A stretch of 63,990 bases of DNA, counting the filler, from Dirinaria sp. TL-2023a (Eukaryota), in NCBI GenBank assembly GCA_051941275.1. It is 7 parts of 7 records of this genome, joined end to end, with 100 filler letters (N's around TTAATTAATTAA, not from the genome) between each part and the next. Parts side by side here need not be neighbours in the genome. Positions count along the whole stretch, not along the records: positions 28,041 to 37,272 come from JAVEBF010001078.1; 6 more parts are not named here. One strand, written 5' to 3'. The position numbers and the translations under genes are program-made. The notes under the pieces are model-generated. The model was not told the origin of the DNA. It did not search any database and saw only the letters and a program-made list of their open reading frames with translations. Every line of letters begins with the position of its first letter. Within the stretch, counting starts at the first letter, position 1. Positions 1,774-37,272 of this stretch are shown piece by piece.

Positions 1774-3490
1774 ATGAGCTATTCCAGACAATTTGATACT
1801 ACGTATATACTAGGCAGAGAAGTATCGGGTTGCAAGCTTCTCTTCGAATAACGCATAGATCAACAGCACTTCCAAATCATGAAATATGCGGTAGATCAAA
1901 GCAATCCTGATCCCGCTCTCCAATTTCTAACTAGGGAACAGACCGCTTTGAGAATTCTCGAAATACGGCGCCGAGGATGCAGATCTGCACTCGAATCTTT
2001 GTACGCGTCGTCTGAAACGCCGGAGCAGCCGTGCATATCGAGCGTTGGTGGTAAATCTGGTGTTCGAGGCAGACCAAGCTTGTTCGAAATGCTAAGGTGG
2101 TTACAGCAGCTTGGTCATACTGTAACGATGTACTGCAATGCATCACTCGAACATAAACTAACTGATCAGTAGACTGCTGATATTAATCGTCTCAACATCA
2201 TACACATAGCGGGGACCAAAGGAAAGGGCGGTACTTGTGCATATATCGAATGTCTCTTGAGAACACATGAACAAAGAATCGGTTTTTCGACGAAAACTGA
2301 GCTTTACACTTTCTCGCATCTCATCGATATCGAGAAAAGAATTCGAATAAACTTTCGACCTTTGGAAAAGGAGGTTTTTGCAAGATACGTGCTGGAAACT
2401 CATGAAGTCTTGCAATCCTTTTTCAGAGATTCTCAGAACGCACCTCGCTATCTTCAATTTCTTGCATTGGTGTCGTTTCACGCATTTATTAAAGAAGGAG
2501 TAGACGTGGCGATATATGAAACTCATCAAGATGATGAATTTGATGCAACGAACGTCACACCGAAGTTCGTTGTGACAGCGATCACCTCAATTGACGAAGA
2601 TCATATGCATCAACTCGATTCATCTCTCGAAAACGTTGCTTGGCATAAGACAGGAATCTTCAAAACTGGTTCTCCTGCGTTCTCAGCCCCGCAGCAGAGT
2701 GCAGTAGCTGCGGTGCTTCAAAGTCGAGCAGTTGAAAGAGGAGTATCGCTAGAATTCGTCGAGGTGTGCAAAGATCTCATAGTTGACGCTTCACAATTGA
2801 AGCCGGAGACTAGACAACTGAATTTTTCCTTGACTCGTGCCGTCAGCAACAGTTTTTTGCGACAGAGAGCGGCACAAGACAATGCTGTGCTTTCATTGCA
2901 CGACATAGTTCGGGGAGCACAAACAGCTTCTTGGTCAGAACGTTTTCAATCAATTTTGAATGATAATCTCACGTGGTTGCTGAACGGAGCACATAACAGA
3001 ATCAGTCTCGAAGTATGTGCACAATGATTCGCTCAATCCTGTCTTGAAACGAAGCAGAATTCAAAAGACTCGCAAGTCTGTCAAGTTCTCATTTTCAGTC
3101 ACTATTTCAGTCATCGAGATCAAGTCGCACTTCTAGAGTGCCTAGCTTGTGCTCTTCTAAAACACCGCGTATCAATTCAACACGCTATTTTTACGATAGA
3201 TCAATACACGGGAAATGCAAGCAACGGTTCGCGACTTTCACTATCGAGAGAAACAATACTAATAAGTTATAGATGCGCAGTTTCACCTTCTTGAACAGTA
3301 CAAGAAACCGTGGGAGAAGATCTATCCCAGATCCAGAGTATATAATATACGCAGTGTTGAGACCGCTTTGACCCTGGCAAAAGAGATTGGAATCAAGGAA
3401 GGTATCACGCATGTTTTGATAACTAAAAGTTTACACGTGATTGGTGAGGCTCTTCGCATTCTAACTTCTTCAGTGCAGAACGACCCCTGA
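1774..3490 (+). pseudogene. Folylpolyglutamate synthase (FPGS/FolC family) paralog, hypermutated
   Basis: P-loop HIAGTKGKGGTC near 2203; degenerate FPGS motifs ELYTFSHL (GLYTSPHL), VDVAIYETHQDDEFDATNV (..GGEYDATN), LNGAHN (LDGAH), HVLITKSLHVIG (LVTGSLHLVG); premature TGA at 3025; terminal TGA at 3488-3490; introns present; start approximate. Confidence 0.85.
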
Positions 3491-4080
3491 GTCACGATGA
3501 GAAAGGATGAATTTGGGAATTTATAAAGGACTAAATTTCGGGATTGCGTATCGAAGCTGCGATGATCCATATAGTCCAAGCTACTGTACTTTAAAAACGA
3601 CTAACTCAACGATAGCTCGGATGATTAGTAAACTCTCGGCCCTCAACGTTTTCCTCGTGACCCTCGCACTAGTCCTAGCTCAGTAAAGCGGACCCCATCT
3701 CAATGTTCTCTAGAACCACACGACGTTTAGCCCATATCTGTAGACGGTTCAGATTCGCTTTTCATCTCAGCACCGGCGTCCGTTGTCAATCTGTTATCGA
3801 CATCAATGTTCAGGACATTCATGAAGCCTTGTTAATCACGTCGGAAGAATTACATTGCTCTGCGACTTCTCATCGACACAATTTACACATACGCCTCTCA
3901 TCACCGCAGCTGCCTAGAAGACCCTCCTCGTCGGTATTCTGCGCACAGCAGCATCGACGAGACCTTGGTCTGAACTCGACCGTATAGAGTGGCGGAGCAC
4001 AAAATTTAAAGACTTGAGACTCATGTCTCAAGAGAGCCAAATTACATCAGTTGATGACATTGCACATGATGATCAAAAGC

Positions 4081-5332
4081 TCAAGAAGAAAGCCACACAA
4101 TTAGTAGAATCTTAAGACTTGCAGCGATCCTTCGTTCGCTAATACAGTGTAGTCTGGCGAAGATGTCGTCCGAGATCTCACGGAGACGAGTGGAAAAGAT
4201 TTTGAAACGATAAATTCTACAGTTTGTGTTATGCTTGTAAAGAAACATGGCATCAGAGAAGTCGTCAGAATTTTCAGCGATCCTGTAACGAATGTAGTAA
4301 CAGGTCCGACACAAAGAACTGAATTCGTTATTGTCGTTAAAAAGTCTGATGAGAATTGCAGATTGCTTGGGAACCCTTCACTTCGATATTTCCGACGCAG
4401 ACCTTGAGTCGATAACATATTTGACCAAGACCTCGCCCAATCCAAGAGAACTCGATTTTCCTCTTCAGTCTCAAAGACGACTCCAATTTAATATAGATGA
4501 ATGGAGATGATATCTCAGAAAATGAACAGGTCATCTGCAAGGTTGGACAGCTGACTTCGTATTGATGGAGAAAATTGAGAAGATCTGTGATCTTGAGGTC
4601 TAACTCAAAACTGTCTCTTTGCGATAAAGCTTGCTCTGCTTCAGAGTCATACTTATTCAGGGGTTGATATGTGATCTGAGTAGAGAACTTCGCCTTGTGT
4701 GAAGATTCTTCTTGATATCCTTGAGCAAGTCCCAATAAATTGTTCTCAGACAGACCCGTATGCTTGCTTTGCAGTGAATGCTGTTCTAAAGTGACTCCGT
4801 AATCAGGGTTGTTGAGGACGAAGAAGCTTGATATACCAGCATCAACAGCAATCTCGAAACGCTGGCGTTTCCGATTCGAATTGCTCTCAGACAGACCCGC
4901 ATGCTTCCTTTACGATGAATGACGTTTTCGATTCGAAGTCATCAAAGAACTGATTGAATTGACCTTGCAAAGTTCTCTGCTTGTTTCCGTCAAGCCTGCT
5001 GAATGCGAGGTCGTTTTCCACCATTTTCTGAGTTTCGGAATGAGGGATTTTGACGATACGCTGCTCAATTTCGAGATGGATGTACACAAAGTGCACAACA
5101 GAAATATCTCTTGCTCTACACCAAAGAAGACGTCGCTTAAGAGTGTACGTGCTCGATCTCTTGCGAAGCGGCGTGTTCTCGATAGTTCTACTGTGTACGT
5201 CTCCTTTTTCTCGAATAACTCGCAGCACAACTCAAATGAATCCTTCTAGTGTTTGAGCAACGGATAAGCGTGATCATCGAAACTTACTCTCACGGGTTTC
5301 AGCAGCTCAATGAATCATCCAATCCATGGCAT
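4081..5332 (-). pseudogene. Decayed multi-exon hypothetical gene
   Basis: ATG at 5332 (MPWIG*FIELLKPVR) splices in frame via GTAAGT..TAG to KDSFELCCELF...RARTLLSDVFFGVEQEIFLLCTLC; further broken frames at 4337-4735 and 4081-4314; 3' end uncertain. Confidence 0.45.
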
Positions 5333-5375
5333 GATGAAAGAGTCAGTGAAAAGCTATGAATGATCTTTGAAAAAG

Positions 5376-5426
5376 AGCGAGTCAGAGCGAGTCAGAGCGG
5401 GACAGAGCGGGACAGCAGAGACAGAA
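5376..5426. repeat. Short 10-bp tandem repeat (GAGCGAGTCA/GAGCGGGACA)
   Basis: Four near-identical 10-mers read directly from the sequence. Confidence 0.7.
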
Positions 5427-6164
5427 CAGTGTGTCGAGCCAATGATATGTATTTAAGAGTGACAAAAATGTATCCTATTGCATTAGAGATGTAGGAGTGT
5501 GGGACTAATGTACGCCATCGAGTCAAAGTCGGATGATGAAGAATTCTGACTAAGCGAGTTGCAGCGATACCGCGAATACTGATCGTATTCAGAAGTCAAG
5601 AACATTATGCAAAGATATCGTCGTGGAGTTCAGTTATATTCTTTCTTCGATTCGTCGTGTCATATCACATCATCTGTCAATCATCCACCTCACGCTCGAT
5701 TAATTTCTCAAGATGTGGTTTCCCGTAGAACTTTCGAATGCTCGAATGTTGACCGTACTCTTCAGAAGATGGGAATTGAGATTTGCATGTGCTTGATTGA
5801 CATGAGTTGACTCCATAGGTCGCTTGATTACAAGTTGAATATTCGATGTCAATATGCCCGCAACTTTACTTAACACCTATCTGGTTCTCTCTGCCTTCTC
5901 TCGTCCTCCTAGCACTCGGATACCCTAGACAATCTCAAGGAGAGTAGATGTGATATGATGAACCACACTTAAGAGAAAATAATTCATCTAAGGGAAAGCC
6001 TATTCTGTCCCATTTCAAAAATCGGCATCACTCCCAGATCCCAGCTCAGGTTCAGCCAGAGCTCTGCTCACTTAGAATATCGTAATTAGCCCCGAACTAT
6101 TATTGATATATCATGTTTCAGTTGCCAGTTTGACTTACCGCAATAGTCATTTCAACAGACTTAT

Positions 6165-28040: not shown

Positions 28041-28142
28041 TATATATATATATATAGTTTCCCCGAACCCAGGCCAACACGTGACCGCTGGCTGACTCAG
28101 GCCTCGCCGCTTTGCTCGCGCGCTAAGGCCCGTTTCGTCAAT

Positions 28143-28206
28143 ATGCTCCCTCGTTGCTCCCTCATGCTCCCTCATGCTCCCTCGATGCTCGCTCGTGCTC
28201 CCCCTC
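28143..28206. repeat. Six copies of a 10-11 bp repeat (ATGCTCCCTC) upstream of the captain
   Basis: Read directly from the sequence. Confidence 0.8.
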
Positions 28207-28546
28207 AGCCACTTCCTACTTTCTCGCCCTTCTTTCCGGCCGTTGCGTTCCTGCAACTTTAAACGAGAGCTTGTATTGGATGCTGGTCAAGAGGCTCCAT
28301 ATATGGCTTCACCCGCCGCCCACCATGGTACCCTCTCCTCTTGCCCTCTTACCCTCTTGTTCTTTTCTTTCCTTTCCTTTCAGTTCTATCTGCTTTGCGG
28401 TAACTCGTCAGGATACCAATTGTTCTGTTTTCCGAGTTCTCATCTTATATCTACTCTACATATAACCTGTTCTCCTCGCTCTATACGTCTTAATCGTCAC
28501 TTGTGCTTTGGGTTTTAAGTTCCTTCTCGCTTTCATCTTGTTTACA

Positions 28547-31500
28547 ATGGCGAAAAAGAAGAGAACTGCTGCGCAGTTCTTCGATGATGCGAAAACGCAT
28601 GACTTAGAGCCCTTGATAAAGACCGATCTGAACAGCGACAAGGTCTCCAAGCATCTTGAATCTGGCACCGAAATAAATTACAGCCGAATGTTAGTCCTTT
28701 GAGATGAGTCAGTCTTCATGTCTTTCCTTATCATCGCAAAATTTATTTTGAATCCTTGTTGACCGTGTCCTGTCTCGATAAAATAGATACGAGAGAAGAA
28801 ACCCTGAAGTCACACCGTACGATAGAAAGACGGCAAAACACTTTATAGAGGGTGTCGTCCGCGGCTGCTGTGCCGATAAGAAGGAATCGTCCATGTATAC
28901 TATGCTTCAGAAATGAACAGACTTCGGCGCTGATTGAAAACGTCGACCCGAGAACGACAAGATCTCTCCTGAAGTATCCGAATTCATCTACTTTGTTCGT
29001 GTCTCTATCTACTCTTGTCTCCATTTGCGAGGTCTAACGATCTCCCCAGTATATACAAATCGAGTTGCGGAAGAAATTCGGACTTTCGATCACTCGACGA
29101 ACCCGACACTTTATGACGATGAATCACTTCGTCATTGTCATCAAGCACATGTGAGCGAAGAACTGACATCAATACAGGCATGAACGGATCCTCGTCCAAG
29201 ATCACGCTGTCTATATGCTTTTCATCTATTCGTCGACGCGAGTGAGCGAGTATTTCGAATTCAATATGCGCAGAGACTCCGGTCGTGAATTGCTGTACGA
29301 GGTGAGTGGGTGAACTACAGAGCACTATCGATTAAGGACGAGTCTAGAGCTTCTACTTACATTTTGAACAGATCATTGACTTCGTCGTCTTCAAGAATGA
29401 AAAAGAAAAGGCAGAGATTGAGATGCGAGTCACACGGGACGCCAAAGGCTTTTCCGAGACGCCGCATAAAAGGTTGCTTCACTGTTTGACGCTTCGGGAT
29501 CGTGCTCACGAGCAACCTTTGCTGACTGTTCCGATGCAATTCTAGGCCACAGCATGGCATGTATGAGGATATGAAGCCGCTGTTTGCGAACCCGATACTG
29601 CCCTTGCTGGCAATCGCCTTGGCGGATCGTGCCTTCCAGAACTATGCGACTTTCGAAGAGATCGAAGAGATTCCCCCGCCTGCGGATGAGTCCTTACACC
29701 ACCTGCGAATCAAGAAGGACATGCTCCGTGTACCTTTCTTCCGAATAGTATCCATCGACGAACCCACGAGAAAGATTCAGGGAGCGGGCTCGTTCAGCAA
29801 TCGAACAGTGAATCTGAGTCATCGTGCCGAGTACGAGAAAAACATCGAGATACATGATATTCGAAGGAAAGCCCTCGTCAAGACTGATGATAAGTTCTCG
29901 AGAGGGACATCTCTGATGAGGCACGCTGACTCCGCTAAGATGACGAGTACTTCATTGCCGAGAGGATGAAATTCGCAGATCATAACAACGCAGATACCTT
30001 CTTCGACTCATACGCGTCGAAGCTGAGTACGATCGACGGTATGACAAGCTACTGAAATAAGAAACGTCGCACCGTTCATCTGAAAGGCTTTCGCGATCTA
30101 TCGCTCCATCATCATCCTCAGCTGCTGCAATCCCTTCTCGCGAAAGTGAAAGCGGACCTCGATAACTGTTCCGAGTTCATCTTCGTCAACAAGAAGATCG
30201 AAATGCTGAGAAAGAAACTCCGAGGCATCAAAACAGAAGATGAAGCCCAGCCCGCTCGGGCTCGACGAGAGGAATTGTATTGGCGGAAGCGCCAGCTCGT
30301 GGTCGAGGAGCTCAGCAAATGACAGCAGATTCAATCACGTAAGATTGCCTCAGACATCGTAGATGAAGCATCTCAAGTCGCGAGTCTCCCAAACTACTTC
30401 AACCGCATTCGCCGTTTCGATTCGCCGCGTGATCGATTGACATCTTCGCTCTTTCTCAACGCTTCTCTCCGCAGCGTGCAAGGCCGTAGCGCACTTCAGA
30501 ATATGATCACGTTATGTGAAGAGAACCCGCGGGTAGCTTATCGTCTAAGTTCGCGGCCGGAAAACGATCGTTGCCCGATACCTCAATGTGCACGGGATAT
30601 GAATCGGTTTGTCTACTTTTCCTTTCTAGTTTCCCACATCATTGATTGTTGATGCTTGACTGACTAAATATTCTTCGATTTTACAGAATCAATCTTGCTG
30701 ATAGGTGAGAACATATTTATCGTTGCCGTAAGAGCGACCTTGAAAGGAAACACGGCTTTGCCGAGCTTTGTTTTCAATGCGACGAGTGAATCACCGCTGC
30801 GGCCGAATGATTTGAGCACTGTCAACGTCACCTCAACGACCTCGACACACTCTCAGTTCAATGCAACCCACTTGTCTTCCGCCGAACCCTTGCTATCGCC
30901 GAGCAATGTCTGTTTTGTCTCTTCGATCTAAAACTCTCATCAACGAAACGTTTCCATCAGTTCTTGATCAAGCAAAGCTGAAGAGAGCATCTGCAGAAAC
31001 ATTTCTGGCAATTAGAAAACATGTACAGTCGATTCATAGAGACCGGTGAAAGCAAGGCAGTTTCATGTCCTGATCCGCGCTGTGCACTTTCGTTCGACTC
31101 GATTCAAGATCTTCAGTGTCACTGTCAGAATGTACACTGCATTGAGCGAGTCAAGCTCGACCCGATCAAAAGACGTCGCCGAACACCTCAGTCTTCGCTG
31201 AATGTGAAGACTTTATTCGGCGTGGGCATCAAGCTGAAATACCGTTGTGACCTCGTAAGAGAGAAAAGTCCTTTTAAGAATGTCAATAAATCTATGAATT
31301 CGTCAACGCTCGAGCCAATTGATGTTGATGTGATCGTTGCCACAGAATCAGTGAGACTGAACGAGAGAAACAGCGTCACTCGACGCTGCTCTCTTCCTTC
31401 AATCGACACGATAGCAAGCCAAGACAGACAAAATTCGTTCACAGCAACTTTCACACATTCGGAAACCTCGCTTTCGATGACTGATTGGACCTCGGACGAG

Positions 31501-31620
31501 GCCGCATATAATAAGCTGACGCCGACATCGTCAGTCTTCTTCGACCTTTCACTTTCAATCGACCCAAGACTCCTCGACGAATCCCATCAGTTGACTCCGG
31601 TTCCGCAGCCGAAGAGCTAG
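28547..31620 (+). pseudogene. Starship captain: DUF3435 tyrosine recombinase with C-terminal Cys/His zinc-finger-like region, multi-exon
   Basis: Spliced frame gives SSTRVSEY (catalytic R), HGMYED..PLFANPILPLLAIALADRAF, HDIRR (HxxR), FADH (FAGH-like), SYAS (Tyr), then CFQC..HCQRH, CLFC..H..H and CPDPRC..HCQNVH; 11 in-frame TGA and a GT>AT donor change at 29890. Confidence 0.85.
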
Positions 31621-32131
31621 CAATAAAAGGCTACTCCAGTTCTCTAAGTATCGTTGCGCGCTTGAAGTGCTTTGTAGGGTCCATGAAGAGCTGAATGAGA
31701 CTTGTAATATGAACTTGATCCTGATCAGATTGAACCAGATAGCAAATCGATCATGTTGCATTTGATGCATATTTTTCAATCTTCACTTCTACATAAAGAG
31801 TATGCTTTCTACAAAGCAAGTCGTTGCCTCAAATACTGTGCTCTTGGGCTATATAGCCTCAATTTAACTCCCAATGACAGCGATCCTTGACATGGATTGA
31901 AACAGTCCTCCAAATAATAAAGGGGCAGATATTGACCTCCGTGCCCCCGAGCCCCCGATTGAGGGCTCCAATTTTGGCTGCCTAAGAGAGGGTGCCAAAA
32001 CTGACGCTCTATGAGAGTGAAAAGCTTTTGAAGTCCCACTTGGCCTCTTTTCATCCCCGGATTCCTTACACTCTGAGATTGAGATTACTGAAACGATATT
32101 GGATGTTCATCATACGAAAGACTTGTCACAA

Positions 32132-32883
32132 AATGACTTCCCGTCGATCCAATAACGTGAAACGCACGAAATGAAGTAGAAAGTGCAGAGAGATACTATC
32201 AGCTCATATTTGTAAGAGCCATGATTCTAGTGATCAAGCTTTTGCTAACAAGAGCTAAGATAATAGACTGGGAATCGCGATTGAAGCCTCACAGATGCGG
32301 CTCAAAACTAATGCGAATGACCCTTATACGTGGGAAAGAATGAAAGAAAAAGAGCACCTGTTCTCCAAAAATCTAAGTGACCTTTCGTCTGACCAGCTTA
32401 AGGATTTGTGTGACGATGTCGATAAATCGTTCGTAGCCATTCATAAGGCCCCAGTCCAATCGCTACCTCAGACACAGAATAAGGAAGCATCTGTATACAC
32501 TAATCATCCTCCTCTATGCAACGTATAGCTGACTGCTCAATAAGTTTCTCGAACTTCCTAGATCGAAAGTTAGCTTTGCGGCAAAGATTGACGAACTCCA
32601 TCAAGACAACGTCAGATTAGCTCGCGATATTAGGAAATGGGAATGCGAGACTGCTATAGAATCGAAAAGAAGACAGAAAGCTGAATTGAAGGTCAGTCAG
32701 TTAAGAGTTATCATTCGGCAGCTCCACATGAATAACGAAAAACTCGAGAAGCACATAAGTGAGTGAAAATCAATAGCAGAGGAATCTAAGAGCAAGGCAG
32801 TCAAATACTGCAGAGAAATGAGCAAGGTTTTTGTAGTACTGAAGGAGATTAAGTGTGAGCTAGCTAGCACCTGCACCAAATAG
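32132..32883 (+). pseudogene. Coiled-coil cargo gene, decayed
   Basis: MTSRRSNNVKRTK*..., ORF 32295-32528, and a heptad-rich last exon KVSFAAKIDELHQDNVRLARDIRKWE...HISE*KSIAEES...CTK*; TGA stops. Confidence 0.5.
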
Positions 32884-33251
32884 CATCCCAGATAGCACCC
32901 GTTGTTACGCTGACAAATGTGAGCCAAGGAGATCTGTGTTTCCCATTAAAAGCTGCATTTCAGACGTATTATTTCCTGTAAGTCTTCTATAAGAATACGT
33001 TTTCGTGTTATTCTGAAAACTCTTCTCGTCTTTTGTTCAAAAATTTGCCGCCCAAATCTTATAAACAATCTAACGGCATTAAATGAGAGGTTGCGATGCT
33101 TAATCGATGATTATTTACAAGCAACGCAATTCTCTAATAAATACCTTCCGCTTCTCTTTTCGATGATGGTTACAATCATAATGATGACCGATTCTCTGAA
33201 CTTCTCCCTTGCTCAAATATGCATGCTACCCTCACTGCTTATGACTCCAGC

Positions 33252-33306
33252 TCCACTTGACTCATTCACTTCTGACTCATCCACTTCTGACTCATCCACT
33301 TCTGAC
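33252..33306. repeat. 15-bp tandem repeat (TCCACTTCTGACTCA); may encode SEVDE repeats of a decayed minus-strand gene
   Basis: About 3.5 copies read directly. Confidence 0.7.
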
Positions 33307-33896
33307 GTCCCTTCCCTACCATAGCTCACTATCTAATTTTGGATTCCCCAGCCATGTCAAAGTCTCAATCAGCTTTCTATCCCAGCATCTAAATCGATTA
33401 TGATGGACTTGCGACGATGATTTGCAACTACGGTTGGTGATTGAGCAAGGTCTGCAATCTATTAAGTCAAGCAAGCGGCAATACGTCTTATTGGAAAACG
33501 GTTTGATACTATCAACCTAAGGAGCCGTAATGACAGATAGTTCTAACATGAAAGTGTAAAGCGAAACGCGAGATACCGAACGAAAGACAGCGTTCGTCAG
33601 AAAATGTTGCTCCGAACGAGTGATGATAGTCACGAGATGTTGCTGTAAAGTAGAAATGAGTGTCACTTAAAGAAGTGTTTTAAGAGTGCTTTTAATGAGA
33701 GATATAGCCGCTTGATCCTCCATGTAATTTCTCTTGAACTAGATCGCTGCAAAAAAGATGTTATTGAGATCGATGTCGATTTTGATACGATTCTGAAATT
33801 GTCGAGACTTGGATATTGATGCTAAACTGAGATTAGTCTGTTTAGTTTGAGTCGACGACTAGATTTCCAAACCTTCTTCTAATTCGCATTTGTTTT

Positions 33897-36023
33897 TTAT
33901 GCAGTCACAGACGTTGCCGATTGTCGCTGATATTGCTGAATAGTCTGTTGAACCGCGCTGACAATCATTGCCTGAACTGCGGCGGACGAAATCATATCAG
34001 CCTGATTTGATTGAGCAACTCCTGACTGAGTCGTTTCTGATTGACTGATTCCTGACTGAGTGACTCCTTGAGTGACTGCTGGCTGGGTAACTGCTGATTG
34101 GGTGACTCCTTGGGTAACTCCTTGAGTGGCTCCTTGAGTGGCGCCTTGAGTGACCGCTGGTTGAGTAATGGCTGGCTGACCGACTACTGCTTGGGCGATA
34201 CCTGGTTGAGCAAACCCTGATTGAGCAATTCCTGATTGAAGGACTCCTGGTTGATCGACTGTAGTCTGAGCTGCTTTTGTCACTTTGAATTGATCGTTCT
34301 TAATCCGCTGCATCGCTTTCATTTCTTCATTCAAGAGTCCAGCTTCTGTCTGTGACATTATGAGAACTCTTCGTCCTTCGAACTTCATCATTTTGCGATA
34401 TGATAAATGATTTTGTAGATCTTGATCAACCCGTGCCTGACCAGCTAAGCGAATAAGATCACTACGCGACATGAGCGTGTCTTTCAATTCTTCCAGCCAC
34501 TCCACCATCATAGTAATCCGGGGATACTGCCCAGTCCCCGATGTTATGGCATCGTCGACCGACATAGCAATTCAACGCATGCTCTTGTATCGATGTTTAT
34601 GTTGAGTGATGAATTCTTTTGTCGATTTCTGAACGAAAGAAATATCCTCGAACTTTAAATCGCCACACAGTTGCGTCGACTTCCACACATGCAATCCTGA
34701 TTTCTTCTCGACTAGAAATTGAAAGTTCTTAAAGACTTGACGCTTGGATAGGATCGACTCGCCGTCCAAAGTCAGTTTGTTCATGGCCTCACTTATCGCT
34801 GTGTCGCCATTGGTCGCAGATTCTGCATTAGCAGTTGGATCTGCTGCATCCTTCATGTTCGTGTCCTCGCCATTGTCAGTATCATTCGCATTGCCAGTGT
34901 CAGATTCAACAGCAGCATCATTACCAGTGCTGAATTCAGTAGCAGCATCAATATCAGTGTCGAATTCAGTGCCAGCGCCAGAACTATTACCAGTATCATC
35001 AGCAGAACTAGATCCGGGTTCCTCGACTTCTGAAAGTCATGCAGACTCCTTAGTGATATCAGCATATTGCCAAGCCCACGTGTCAGACAAGCCACGGTCA
35101 TTGCAGAATTCCTGAGTTGCGACGCAGAGAGTCTGAAAGATGGCGGCCAGCTCCTTTTTTTGTTCAGGGTCGGTCGTGTCTTTATACGTCTTCCTCAGTG
35201 CTTGCGTGTTTTGATACTTGTCTTGAAGGTACTTCAGAGGAAATTTTCCGCGACCTGGATTGTAACCTTTCTCTTTATTGTGGGCTTCGATATCGCTATT
35301 CATCTTCTTTACAAAAGCGAGCGCTTTCTGATTGAAAGATTCAATTTGCAGTCGGCGGATGCTTTCTACGAAGGGCGTTGTATTCCAAAATCTTTTATGT
35401 GATTGCTTGAGCCTTTCTATTTCCTCCGATGTGTCAGTGGAAAGGTCGAATTTATCTCGAGCTTCATTTAAAACTGTTTTGTGATCAGTTTTCCTGTCTT
35501 TGATTAGAATTCTTTGCTTACTTGAGTGCGCCTTTGTGGCCTTTTCCTTCCAGTCTGAAGTCTGCTTATCGGGATGAGTCAGAAGAGCAAGTTGCCTATA
35601 GACTTGCGTCATTGCAGCTTTGTCCGCATGATGGAATTGTTCAAGCGCCTCGTCGAGGCCATCATCGATGATTCGATCGATTTCATAATGCTGTTGCTCG
35701 CGAAGCTGATTTTGACTCAAATCTTCGATGGGGCCGAGCGATTCAAGGGCGACTTTTCCCCCTTTGACAGATGACCTTGTTTGTCGTGTGATACCAGAGG
35801 GTTGACCGGACTCTTGGTTTGCGATACTGAAACTCCCACTTGCGGCATTGTTGAAGGTGCCACCTGCATTATTGTTGGCATTTCCGCTTGACGCATCATT
35901 CGTCGAACCCTGTGCATTACTGTTCGTGACCGCATTGCCGTTGGGGGTTCCGGCTGAGATACCCGATGTGCTTGGAAGGGTAGGGTACTGAACACTATCG
36001 TTGTTCGGGGGTGTTGAGCTCAT
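33897..36023 (-). pseudogene. J-domain (HPD) cargo protein with acidic linker and Gln-rich short repeats; two in-frame TGA
   Basis: ORFs 35037-36038, 34572-34856 and 33897-34565 are one frame; YRQLALLTHPDK, 48-nt GTAAGC..ACAG intron, then ILNEARD; C-terminal Q-[P/S/G]-x-x-(x) repeats. Confidence 0.75.
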
Positions 36024-37272
36024 GGTTAAGAAACTCAAAGAATAGAATCAACGACTGTAGATTTGCCCTGTAATCAGGTCAACTGATTTTAGCTGCGAAC
36101 GTGTTTCGAATCGAGTGATTTCTAGTGGCAAAATATACTGTTGGGCCGACGAAGCTTTGAATCTTTATCAGAATGAAGTTTAGAGAAACAAGGGAACACA
36201 AAGAGGATACTTATAGATAATGATAACAGTAAGCCAGCCAATTCATGCTCATATGGGCGCCAGCTTTTGGCTGGGTTATCGACGTGATTAATTCTGGCTG
36301 CATTTCGATTCAAAACGTGCTCCTCAGAAGTGCATCCATAATGGGCGCCTGGGGATCCAGAACGAGTGCTGAACTTATGTGATTAATAAGGAATACGTTT
36401 CTCCTCGATGTTTCTGTTCACTACACTGCGAACATGAAGAGAATAAAGCTTTTCACATTATTGATGCTGTGCATCGTTGCAAGATGAGTACTTCGACTCA
36501 GAGCGAACAAGCTAATAGCTTCTCTCAGTCGTGCGGACGAAATCCTAGAGACCATCAACATCGAAATCGATATATCATGAAACTCAACGAGCGTCAATGC
36601 TAGCGCACAAGCGTCGATCAACAGTGCAGAAACGTCTTCCAGCACAGACTTCAATGCTACTCCAGGAAGAGCTATGGCAGCAGTCGTATCAAGCAGATCT
36701 GACGGTCAAATTGAGCCCACATTTGCAATCACTCAATCATCAGAGGCGGGGCCATTTGTCGGGACCCAGATGAACTCTTCTATGCCCACAGACTCATCTT
36801 GGCCTGGCTACCGTGGTTTGACTGGCTCTGCTCCAACGGCAAGTCAGTCATCGGGTTTGAAGCAGTCAAACAGCAGTCTCTGAGCGATCGATAGCCTGAG
36901 ATCGACAGCGCAAGCCTCTTCTTCTCCATTCTCTGGAGAGGCGTCGACAAGAAAAGTATCGAAGGAAGACGTTGACTTGCTCATCGTCCTTGGCTGCGTC
37001 ATTGAAATATTTCTATAAATAGATCTTAGTGAAGATAGAACCCAGACAACACGGAAAAGATTCCAAGAGCCAACGTAACAATCAAGACTGAGATATAGAC
37101 GTCCGACACCCTGAAGCCTAGATATGGGATGCCGGTCAAGTGAAACCTGCAAGACGCAGATGTCTGCATGTGAGGTAAGCATGACATAAATAAAATGTGA
37201 CTGCGCCATCTAAGCCTGCATGAAATAGTGCGGCTGAGAGACATCGCCGGAACTGACTGCCAACTATGCGCT

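Follow-up and report, generated by a model that had tools for sequence, protein, structure and literature searches.

Positions 28041-37272 of the window examined here, a stretch of 63,990 nucleotides from Dirinaria sp. TL-2023a (GenBank assembly GCA_051941275.1), probably represent the initial 9.2 kb of a cargo-bearing, Starship-type transposon from a lichen-forming fungus, whose 5′ end lies at a TA tract and whose copy in the window has been killed by repeat-directed C-to-T mutation at CpC sites. The window is composed of seven contigs of ~9.2 kb each with N spacers between them, and the element fills one complete contig of 9232 bp (JAVEBF010001078.1), which has no sequence in common with the other six. 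An initial annotation of this contig had proposed a Starship starting at a (TA)n tract; the CpC-directed, repeat-confined hypermutation was no part of that proposal and is, in our judgement, the more surprising of the two results. The evidence comes from the window and from 24 loci (given here with the prefix L) that were collected by scanning metagenome contigs with an alignment of homologues, 21 of which match the contig by blastn.

The first gene of the contig is a captain pseudogene, encoding a tyrosine recombinase of the DUF3435 family in seven exons and 888 codons on the plus strand (28547-31620), as supported by tblastn, splice sites, and Pfam. Two kinds of evidence went into the gene model: tblastn alignments to P0012 and P0013, both full-length homologues, and canonical fungal splice signals. 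It starts with an ATG at 28547, which is 490 bp after the TA tract, comprises the exons 28547-28707, 28787-28994, 29050-29301, 29372-29472, 29546-29889, 29940-30606, and 30687-31620, and ends with a TAG stop at 31618-31620. Five of its six introns are of the GT..AG type and one reads AT..AG, and the reading frame is interrupted by 11 TGA codons, with no in-frame TAA or TAG. No open reading frame (ORF) track shows the captain because of these 11 stops and six introns, as the initial annotation had suspected when it described a multi-exon recombinase at this very distance from the TA tract. The recombinase residues that it listed all align with those of the homologues, namely R187 (29239-41), H344 and R347 of the HxxR motif (29853-64), H370 (29981-83), and Y380 (30011-13), and its zinc-finger-like tail corresponds to a Cys/His-rich tail after the catalytic part, in keeping with the UniRef label 'C2H2-type domain-containing' on two homologues.

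The profile search for DUF3435 (PF11917) that had been suggested as a check also detects the family. Among 83 stop-to-stop ORFs, only the one at 29526-29966 matches, with an E-value of 1.1e-5 and a score of 25.1 bits against a cut-off of 25.8, and another fragment covering exon 5 scores 23.8 bits against the same cut-off. Scores just below the cut-off count against the assignment, and they arise because only a one-exon fragment of the window gene can be scored; the full-length homologues P0013 and P0012 reach 63.4 and 61.5 bits, respectively. In total, 12 homologues were found, the best of which is 79% identical and six of which carry a precomputed PF11917 match. Captain relatives come from lichen or lichen-associated fungi, including Stereocaulon, Gyalolechia, Puttea, Exophiala, and Geoglossaceae. 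As a side observation, public annotations in this captain clade are truncated or chimeric: the database gene models P0005, P0006, and P0008 read through introns or start within the gene, and P0006 includes a translated intron 5 and has its last exon in the wrong frame.

The damage to the window captain has a very uniform character. All 11 in-frame TGA codons align to Trp residues conserved in the homologues, and TGG is kept at only three of 14 Trp codons. The donor of intron 5 (29890) reads AT, where relatives read GT. Comparison with the homologues at 465 conserved codon columns gave 86 differences, of which 46 need only a G>A change (42 of them after G) and 16 only a C>T change (15 of them before C), while eight cannot be explained by a single change and the remaining 16 are of other or ambiguous type. 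Apart from the changes at Trp codons, 35 G>A changes hit conserved Gly, Glu, Asp, Ala, or Val residues. The same bias extends over the whole contig, non-coding parts included: the dinucleotide odds are 0.60 for GG and 1.44 for GA, compared to 0.90 and 1.16 in the other six contigs, and the values for CC and TC are 0.83 and 1.25, with TpA not raised (0.59) and CpG not depleted (1.05). The differences between the window and public contigs of two lichen-type sequence runs are also mostly transitions, and at the 38 differing sites tabulated, A in the window against G in the others follows a G in 11 of 13 cases, and T against C precedes a C in six of seven.

Because all in-frame stops are TGA at conserved Trp positions, it could be argued that a reassigned code or a suppressor allows TGA to be translated as Trp and that the gene is functional, the more so as long frames appear once TGA is treated as a sense codon. 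This explanation is rejected as having next to no probability. The missense changes, the lost splice donor, the loss of GG throughout the contig, and ORFs of 833 and 905 aa in the standard code on other contigs of the window together indicate that the stops are mutations; in addition, three Trp codons of the same gene are still TGG, and TGG is used in the related intact copies. CpG deamination, by which CGA would become TGA, was rejected as a source of the stops, given the CpG odds of 1.05 and the alignment of the TGA codons to Trp and not to Arg. The conversion of TGG to TGA by a G-to-A change in a GG context means, for the other strand, that the first C of a CpC has become T. Repeat-directed C-to-T mutation at this position, mostly in CCA, produced the 11 Trp-to-TGA changes, the lost donor, and the many Gly and Glu changes of a copy that can no longer move and is a dead relic.

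The site preference becomes clear when the related copies are compared. Copies were polarised against the majority of ten little-mutated copies over 3.6 kb, and the share of C changed to T was sorted by the following base. In the window copy, this share is 33% at CpC (130/395), compared to 12% at CpA (51/440), 11% at CpG, and 17% at CpT. L015 shows it at 68% of CpC (280/409), with 11% at CpA, 9% at CpG, and 10% at CpT, and L021 at 39% of CpC, with 19%, 14%, and 17% at CpA, CpG, and CpT, respectively. The CpC signature is present not only in L020/L021 but also in three separate assemblies of one locus, L014-16. Mutation of CpC to TpC is nearly saturating in L014-16, which carry 12-14 TGA stops and have three or four of the six intron donors changed to AT. 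The base 5′ of the C has no effect; by contrast, the third base matters, with 49% of CCA, 32% of CCG, 25% of CCT, and 16% of CCC changed in the window copy, and the preferential change of CCA is the reason why Trp codons are hit so often.

Other copies bear a different mark. The classical CpA type is found in L001 (CpA 15%, CpC 4%, CpG 7%, CpT 4%), L012 (28%, 5%, 7%, and 5%, in the same order), and L009 (12%, 1%, 2%, and 0%), and there are almost no changes in L005 (2%, 2%, 0%, and 1%). In L001, L009, and L012, the CpA-to-TpA changes are accompanied by TAG and TAA stops.

The changes are also confined to the repeat. The odds in the element of L015/L016 are 0.15 for GG and 0.21 for CC, falling to 0.00-0.02 in single 1-kb intervals, whereas the 4.9-kb flank of L015 has 0.89 and 0.88, and the switch occurs at the left end of the element. 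A similar confinement is shown by L001 for the CpA type, with odds of 0.39 for CA, 0.48 for TG, and 1.42 for TA in the element and 1.12 for CA in the flank. Moreover, the CpC changes of L015 are equally frequent on both strands (147 vs 133). The restriction to transitions, the confinement to the repeat, the sharp edge, and the involvement of both strands suggest that the process behaves like repeat-induced point mutation (RIP) with another site preference, and we infer that a RIP-type enzyme lies behind it. Two points weigh against this interpretation. The polarising reference comes from other subfamilies, so that part of the 11-17% background in the window copy is ordinary divergence; and the window copy has no flank with which its element could be compared, confinement having been seen only in L015/L016 and L001.

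The CpC changes might instead be ascribed to a deaminase of the AID/APOBEC type acting on single-stranded transposition intermediates, or to an artefact of sequencing or assembly, an origin which the strand bias of the window copy (GG 0.60 vs CC 0.83) and the co-occurrence of an intact and a mutated copy in some assemblies would fit. We consider it unlikely in view of the recurrence of the same signature in the three assemblies L014-16, in L020/L021, and in the window, the equality of the strands in L015, the dependence on the 3′ and not the 5′ neighbour, the start of the signature at the element edge, and the presence of a second affected stretch on the first contig of the window. In that stretch, at 2001-6000, GG and CC are again lost and GA and TC gained, with odds of 0.35 for CC at 2001-3000 and of 0.44 for GG at 4001-5000. 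It contains an ORF resembling folylpolyglutamate synthase (2173-3342), with in-frame TGA codons and a Mur_ligase_M match of 21 bits, which is below the cut-off. Possibly this is a further duplicated sequence on which the CpC-type process has acted.

Canonical RIP is a premeiotic process that depends on RID or DIM-2, and it converts CpA to TpA, thereby raising TpA/ApT and lowering (CpA+TpG)/(ApC+GpT). The process proposed here resembles RIP of Neurospora and other ascomycetes in that it makes only C-to-T and G-to-A transitions, is confined to repeats with a sharp edge, creates stop codons, can approach saturation, and is governed by the base 3′ of the C. It differs in preferring CpC (CCA>CCG~CCT>CCC) to CpA and in leaving TpA without an increase. 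With the thresholds that PMC3897900 quotes, the classical RIP indices of the contig, 0.58 and 1.34, would give the verdict 'not RIPped'. Canonical RIP was accordingly rejected for the window copy, on the basis of these indices and of the low share of CpA relative to CpC changes. A kingdom-wide, pattern-agnostic screen describes a CpA preference as shared by RIP-like defences (PMC12543289), and no title or abstract among those listed by a non-exhaustive search of the literature claimed a CpC-dominant form of RIP. Tentatively, and with a probability that we place a little short of even for the proposal as a whole, some lichen fungi may possess a RIP-type defence acting at the first C of CpC, which would turn CCA into TCA and Trp codons into TGA and strip a repeat of almost all GG and CC while leaving the classical indices unchanged, with the CpA type operating in other hosts and with a Starship lineage that integrates into TA microsatellites as the target.

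The left boundary of the element could be defined from the related copies. The match to the contig starts within 10 nt of its first base in 13 loci, and the other eight matching loci are contigs cut inside the element. In the window, the junction consists of (TA)8 at 28041-56 followed by G (28041-28057, plus strand), exactly as first described, and the contig start cuts the tract, so that its true length is at least eight units. The same TATATAG is present in 10 of 10 related copy groups. Next to it lies a conserved 5′ terminal sequence, NN-TCCCCGAAC...CAACACGTGACC (28058-28092, plus strand), recognised from the alignment of copy ends, in which TCCCCGAAC occupies 28060-28068. All 11 distinct copies have the junction TATATAG-NN-TCCCCGAAC...CAACACGTGAC, and the sequence upstream of it differs from copy to copy. 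In an all-against-all blastn comparison of the 13 loci, the likeness between pairs without a common flank begins only 9-30 nt before TCCCCGAAC; the exceptions with a common flank, {L005, L017} and {L014, L015, L016}, are the same locus in different assemblies. Twelve upstream flanks are longer than 300 bp, and they form nine groups that resemble neither one another nor any other locus; the 115-bp flank of L006, which was judged by eye only, is counted beside these nine. Thus, the boundary that had been placed near 28057 is borne out by 13 loci and nine flank groups, in which homology among copies with unrelated flanks stops at the TA tract.

The surroundings of the insertions provide some information on where the family settles. 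The flanks of L011, L003, and L002 carry host genes for Sld2/Drc1, HET, a protein kinase, ATP11, an AMP-binding enzyme, an MFS transporter, and a mannosyltransferase, and the G+C content of these flanks is normal, so that these insertions lie in gene-rich DNA and not in AT-rich islands. There was no Rfam match on seven loci (141 kb), and hence no 5S rDNA or tRNA target among them, and a blastn-short comparison of the flanks with the element starts in 10 loci had no match at E<=0.05. The captain is uninterrupted, with 884 or 861 aa and every splice site preserved, in L002, L004, L005/L017, L006, and L010/L011. L010 and L011 share 98.9% identity across 13,584 columns (from -17 to +13.5 kb relative to the left end), stand in different flanks, and have intact captains of 861 aa, indicating that the element family has been mobile recently; the insertion of L011 lies ~130-370 bp from the start of the Sld2/Drc1 gene, and the pair points to a recent jump into gene-rich DNA. 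Near-unmutated and CpC-hypermutated copies are held by the same assemblies in the pairs L003/L014, L005/L015, and L017/L021, which reflects either invasions at different times or different fungi of one lichen.

The three observations named at the outset as refuting the proposal, a missing DUF3435 match, homology between copies past the TA tract, and copies without a TA flank, were each looked for, and none was made; the suggestion that the element may target TA microsatellites thereby stands as a candidate. TATATAG is present in 11 of 11 copies, and a longer tract of (TA)6-11 is found at the junction in seven of the 11 (window, L001, L003, L004, L006, L014-16, and L021), with TATATA alone, beside a TA-like flank, in the remaining four (L002, L005/L017, L010, and L011). 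Of the ten runs of (TA)>=5 in 308 kb of window and loci, nine lie at an element junction, an association with TA that chance cannot plausibly account for. The tract may be the target or else the tip of the element itself. If it were the target, a TATATA core common to the element ends and the target, an AT-rich and palindromic sequence, would serve as the point where the captain cuts the element and joins it up again, and TA microsatellites would offer many registers for strand exchange, leading to junction tracts of varying length.

On the opposing view, the tract could belong to the element as its own terminal microsatellite, the edge lying just upstream and the length varying by slippage. 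This point weighs against a target role, as at least TATATAG is kept in every copy, including the near-identical L010 and L011, and microsatellites change rapidly in length. We regard an element-borne tract as possible but clearly less probable, considering that only (TA)3 is left in four of the 11 copies, beside a TA-like but degenerate flank, and that the direct repeats of known Starships mirror the cores of their targets, as described in PMC11162782. The upstream side of L010 is also relevant here. It shows GTTCGGGG-TG-TATATAG, the inverted end motif with a TATATAG of its own, as would be expected if TATATA flanks both ends, and the TATATAG of the next element follows 3 nt on (L010:8380-8480). 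A DUF3723 gene, belonging to a Starship auxiliary family and scoring 113 bits, is located 6-7 kb upstream of the L010 junction (L010:1050-2095). In this arrangement, a single case, another Starship may have its right end next to L010 at one TA-rich spot. Starships are bounded by direct repeats and sometimes also by terminal inverted repeats. The combination of GTTCGGGG with TATATA at a plausible element end was found in no locus except upstream of L010, and the contig at 28041-37272 has no inverted partner of the end motif. Integration at TA tracts, as opposed to a TA tip carried by the element, is retained as the candidate mechanism.

The identification as a Starship, as first suggested, is supported by three features of the left part. 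The captain precedes all other genes and is transcribed into the element, with the same layout in 13 loci; the copies are still alike where the fetched loci end, which is more than 13.5 kb away from the left end; and a ferric-reductase-like gene lies beyond the end of the window contig in four independent copy groups (L001, L005/L017, L010/L011, and L015/L016). The latter gene matches FAD_binding_8 with 39 bits (cut-off 22), its Ferric_reduct and NAD_binding_6 matches being under their cut-offs. Conserved genes of unknown function also follow the recombinase within the contig, as the initial annotation had stated. The clearest is a Gln/Thr-rich gene on the minus strand (33900-36164) with three in-frame TGA codons, recognised by its similarity to a 592-aa ORF of L011, to which it is 61% identical over 585 aa; it has relatives in lichen fungi, among them Puttea and Psora, no Pfam family was found for it, and there was no Atlas match for the L011 orthologue.

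A Crypton-type transposon measures a few kb and carries essentially the recombinase alone. The view that the contig comes from such a small transposon with a tyrosine recombinase, be it Crypton-like or unclassified, rather than from a cargo-carrying Starship, draws on the fact that the window shows only 9.2 kb, on a captain without family assignment, and on the absence of any DUF3723, patatin-like (PLP), or NLR gene from the part common to the copies. It is, in our estimation, very unlikely, since the small size is not observed: the common part exceeds 13.5 kb, runs to the ends of the fetched loci, and holds at least two further conserved genes, the recombinase is a DUF3435 protein, and the ferric-reductase-like gene represents one of the four Starship auxiliary families given in PMC11162782. 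Two points nevertheless weigh against the Starship interpretation in its full form. The sequence seen is that of the left part of the element, so that 'giant' and 'target' are provisional terms, and the captain carries no family assignment. These copies probably constitute a new Starship-like family with a junction at a TA tract.

The comparison with described Starships is consistent with this assessment. Like those treated in PMC11162782, the family has a DUF3435 captain as its first 5′ gene, pointing into the element, and a sharp 5′ boundary; behind the captain come several kb with more genes, one of them a ferric-reductase-like auxiliary gene, and several copies occupy unrelated sites. The targets named there are 5S rDNA, AT-rich or transposable element sequence, and TTAC(N7)A; in contrast, a TA dinucleotide tract marks the junction of the element in the contig, and the main text of that paper does not use the word 'microsatellite'. 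Its supplement lists 14 recombinases and no elements in the row for a Glutinoglossum genome. Starships of lichen-forming fungi, including Tangerine, are already in print (PMC13486527). The present family is similar to Tangerine in its Lecanoromycetes or lichen-associated hosts, in a captain near the 5′ end, and in RIP on associated repeats, and it resembles the captain clades of the same paper in having kin in Chaetothyriales, here represented by Exophiala among the homologues. It differs from Tangerine in that the captain has 861-888 aa and a Cys/His tail, compared to 283 aa without a core-binding domain, and in that the family is present at no fewer than 10 sites, compared to a single locus (PMC13486527).

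The remaining features of the contig complete this picture of the left end. A tandem repeat of ATGCTCCCTC in 5.8 copies (28143-28202, plus strand) lies in the leader between the element end and the captain ATG. Downstream of the captain, alignment shows a stretch at 31887-32931 that is kept between copies at 70-76% identity and contains short ORFs without a known family. From 36165 to 37272, the element runs on to the contig end, and the break lies inside the element, as alignments to L003, L005, and L017 reach 37271. Two public sequence runs match the contig, each with 0.05 of the sampled words. At 80% likeness, the two runs give 140 and 374 pieces, which represent diverged copies, and 6 and 15 of the pieces are at least 99% alike. 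In one run (X1), two contigs extend beyond 37271, with a mutual agreement of 0.88. In the other (X2), the first 308-bp bin of the contig has a summed contig depth of 1237, compared to 22-529 in the other bins.

The family combines multiple copies, some with intact captains, with a 5′ end known to the base and a very simple candidate target, and this makes the choice of sites by its captain testable. If the TA target is true, microsatellites would join 5S rDNA, AT-rich DNA, and TTAC(N7)A among the insertion niches of Starships. The hypermutated captain and the TA junction account for the failures of gene finding and the assembly breaks encountered here. Above all, the repeat-confined and near-saturating conversion of CpC to TpC runs counter to the conclusion that RIP-like systems share a preference for CpA, and, since the usual RIP indices and screens for AT-richness are blind to this signature, such defences may be under-counted.

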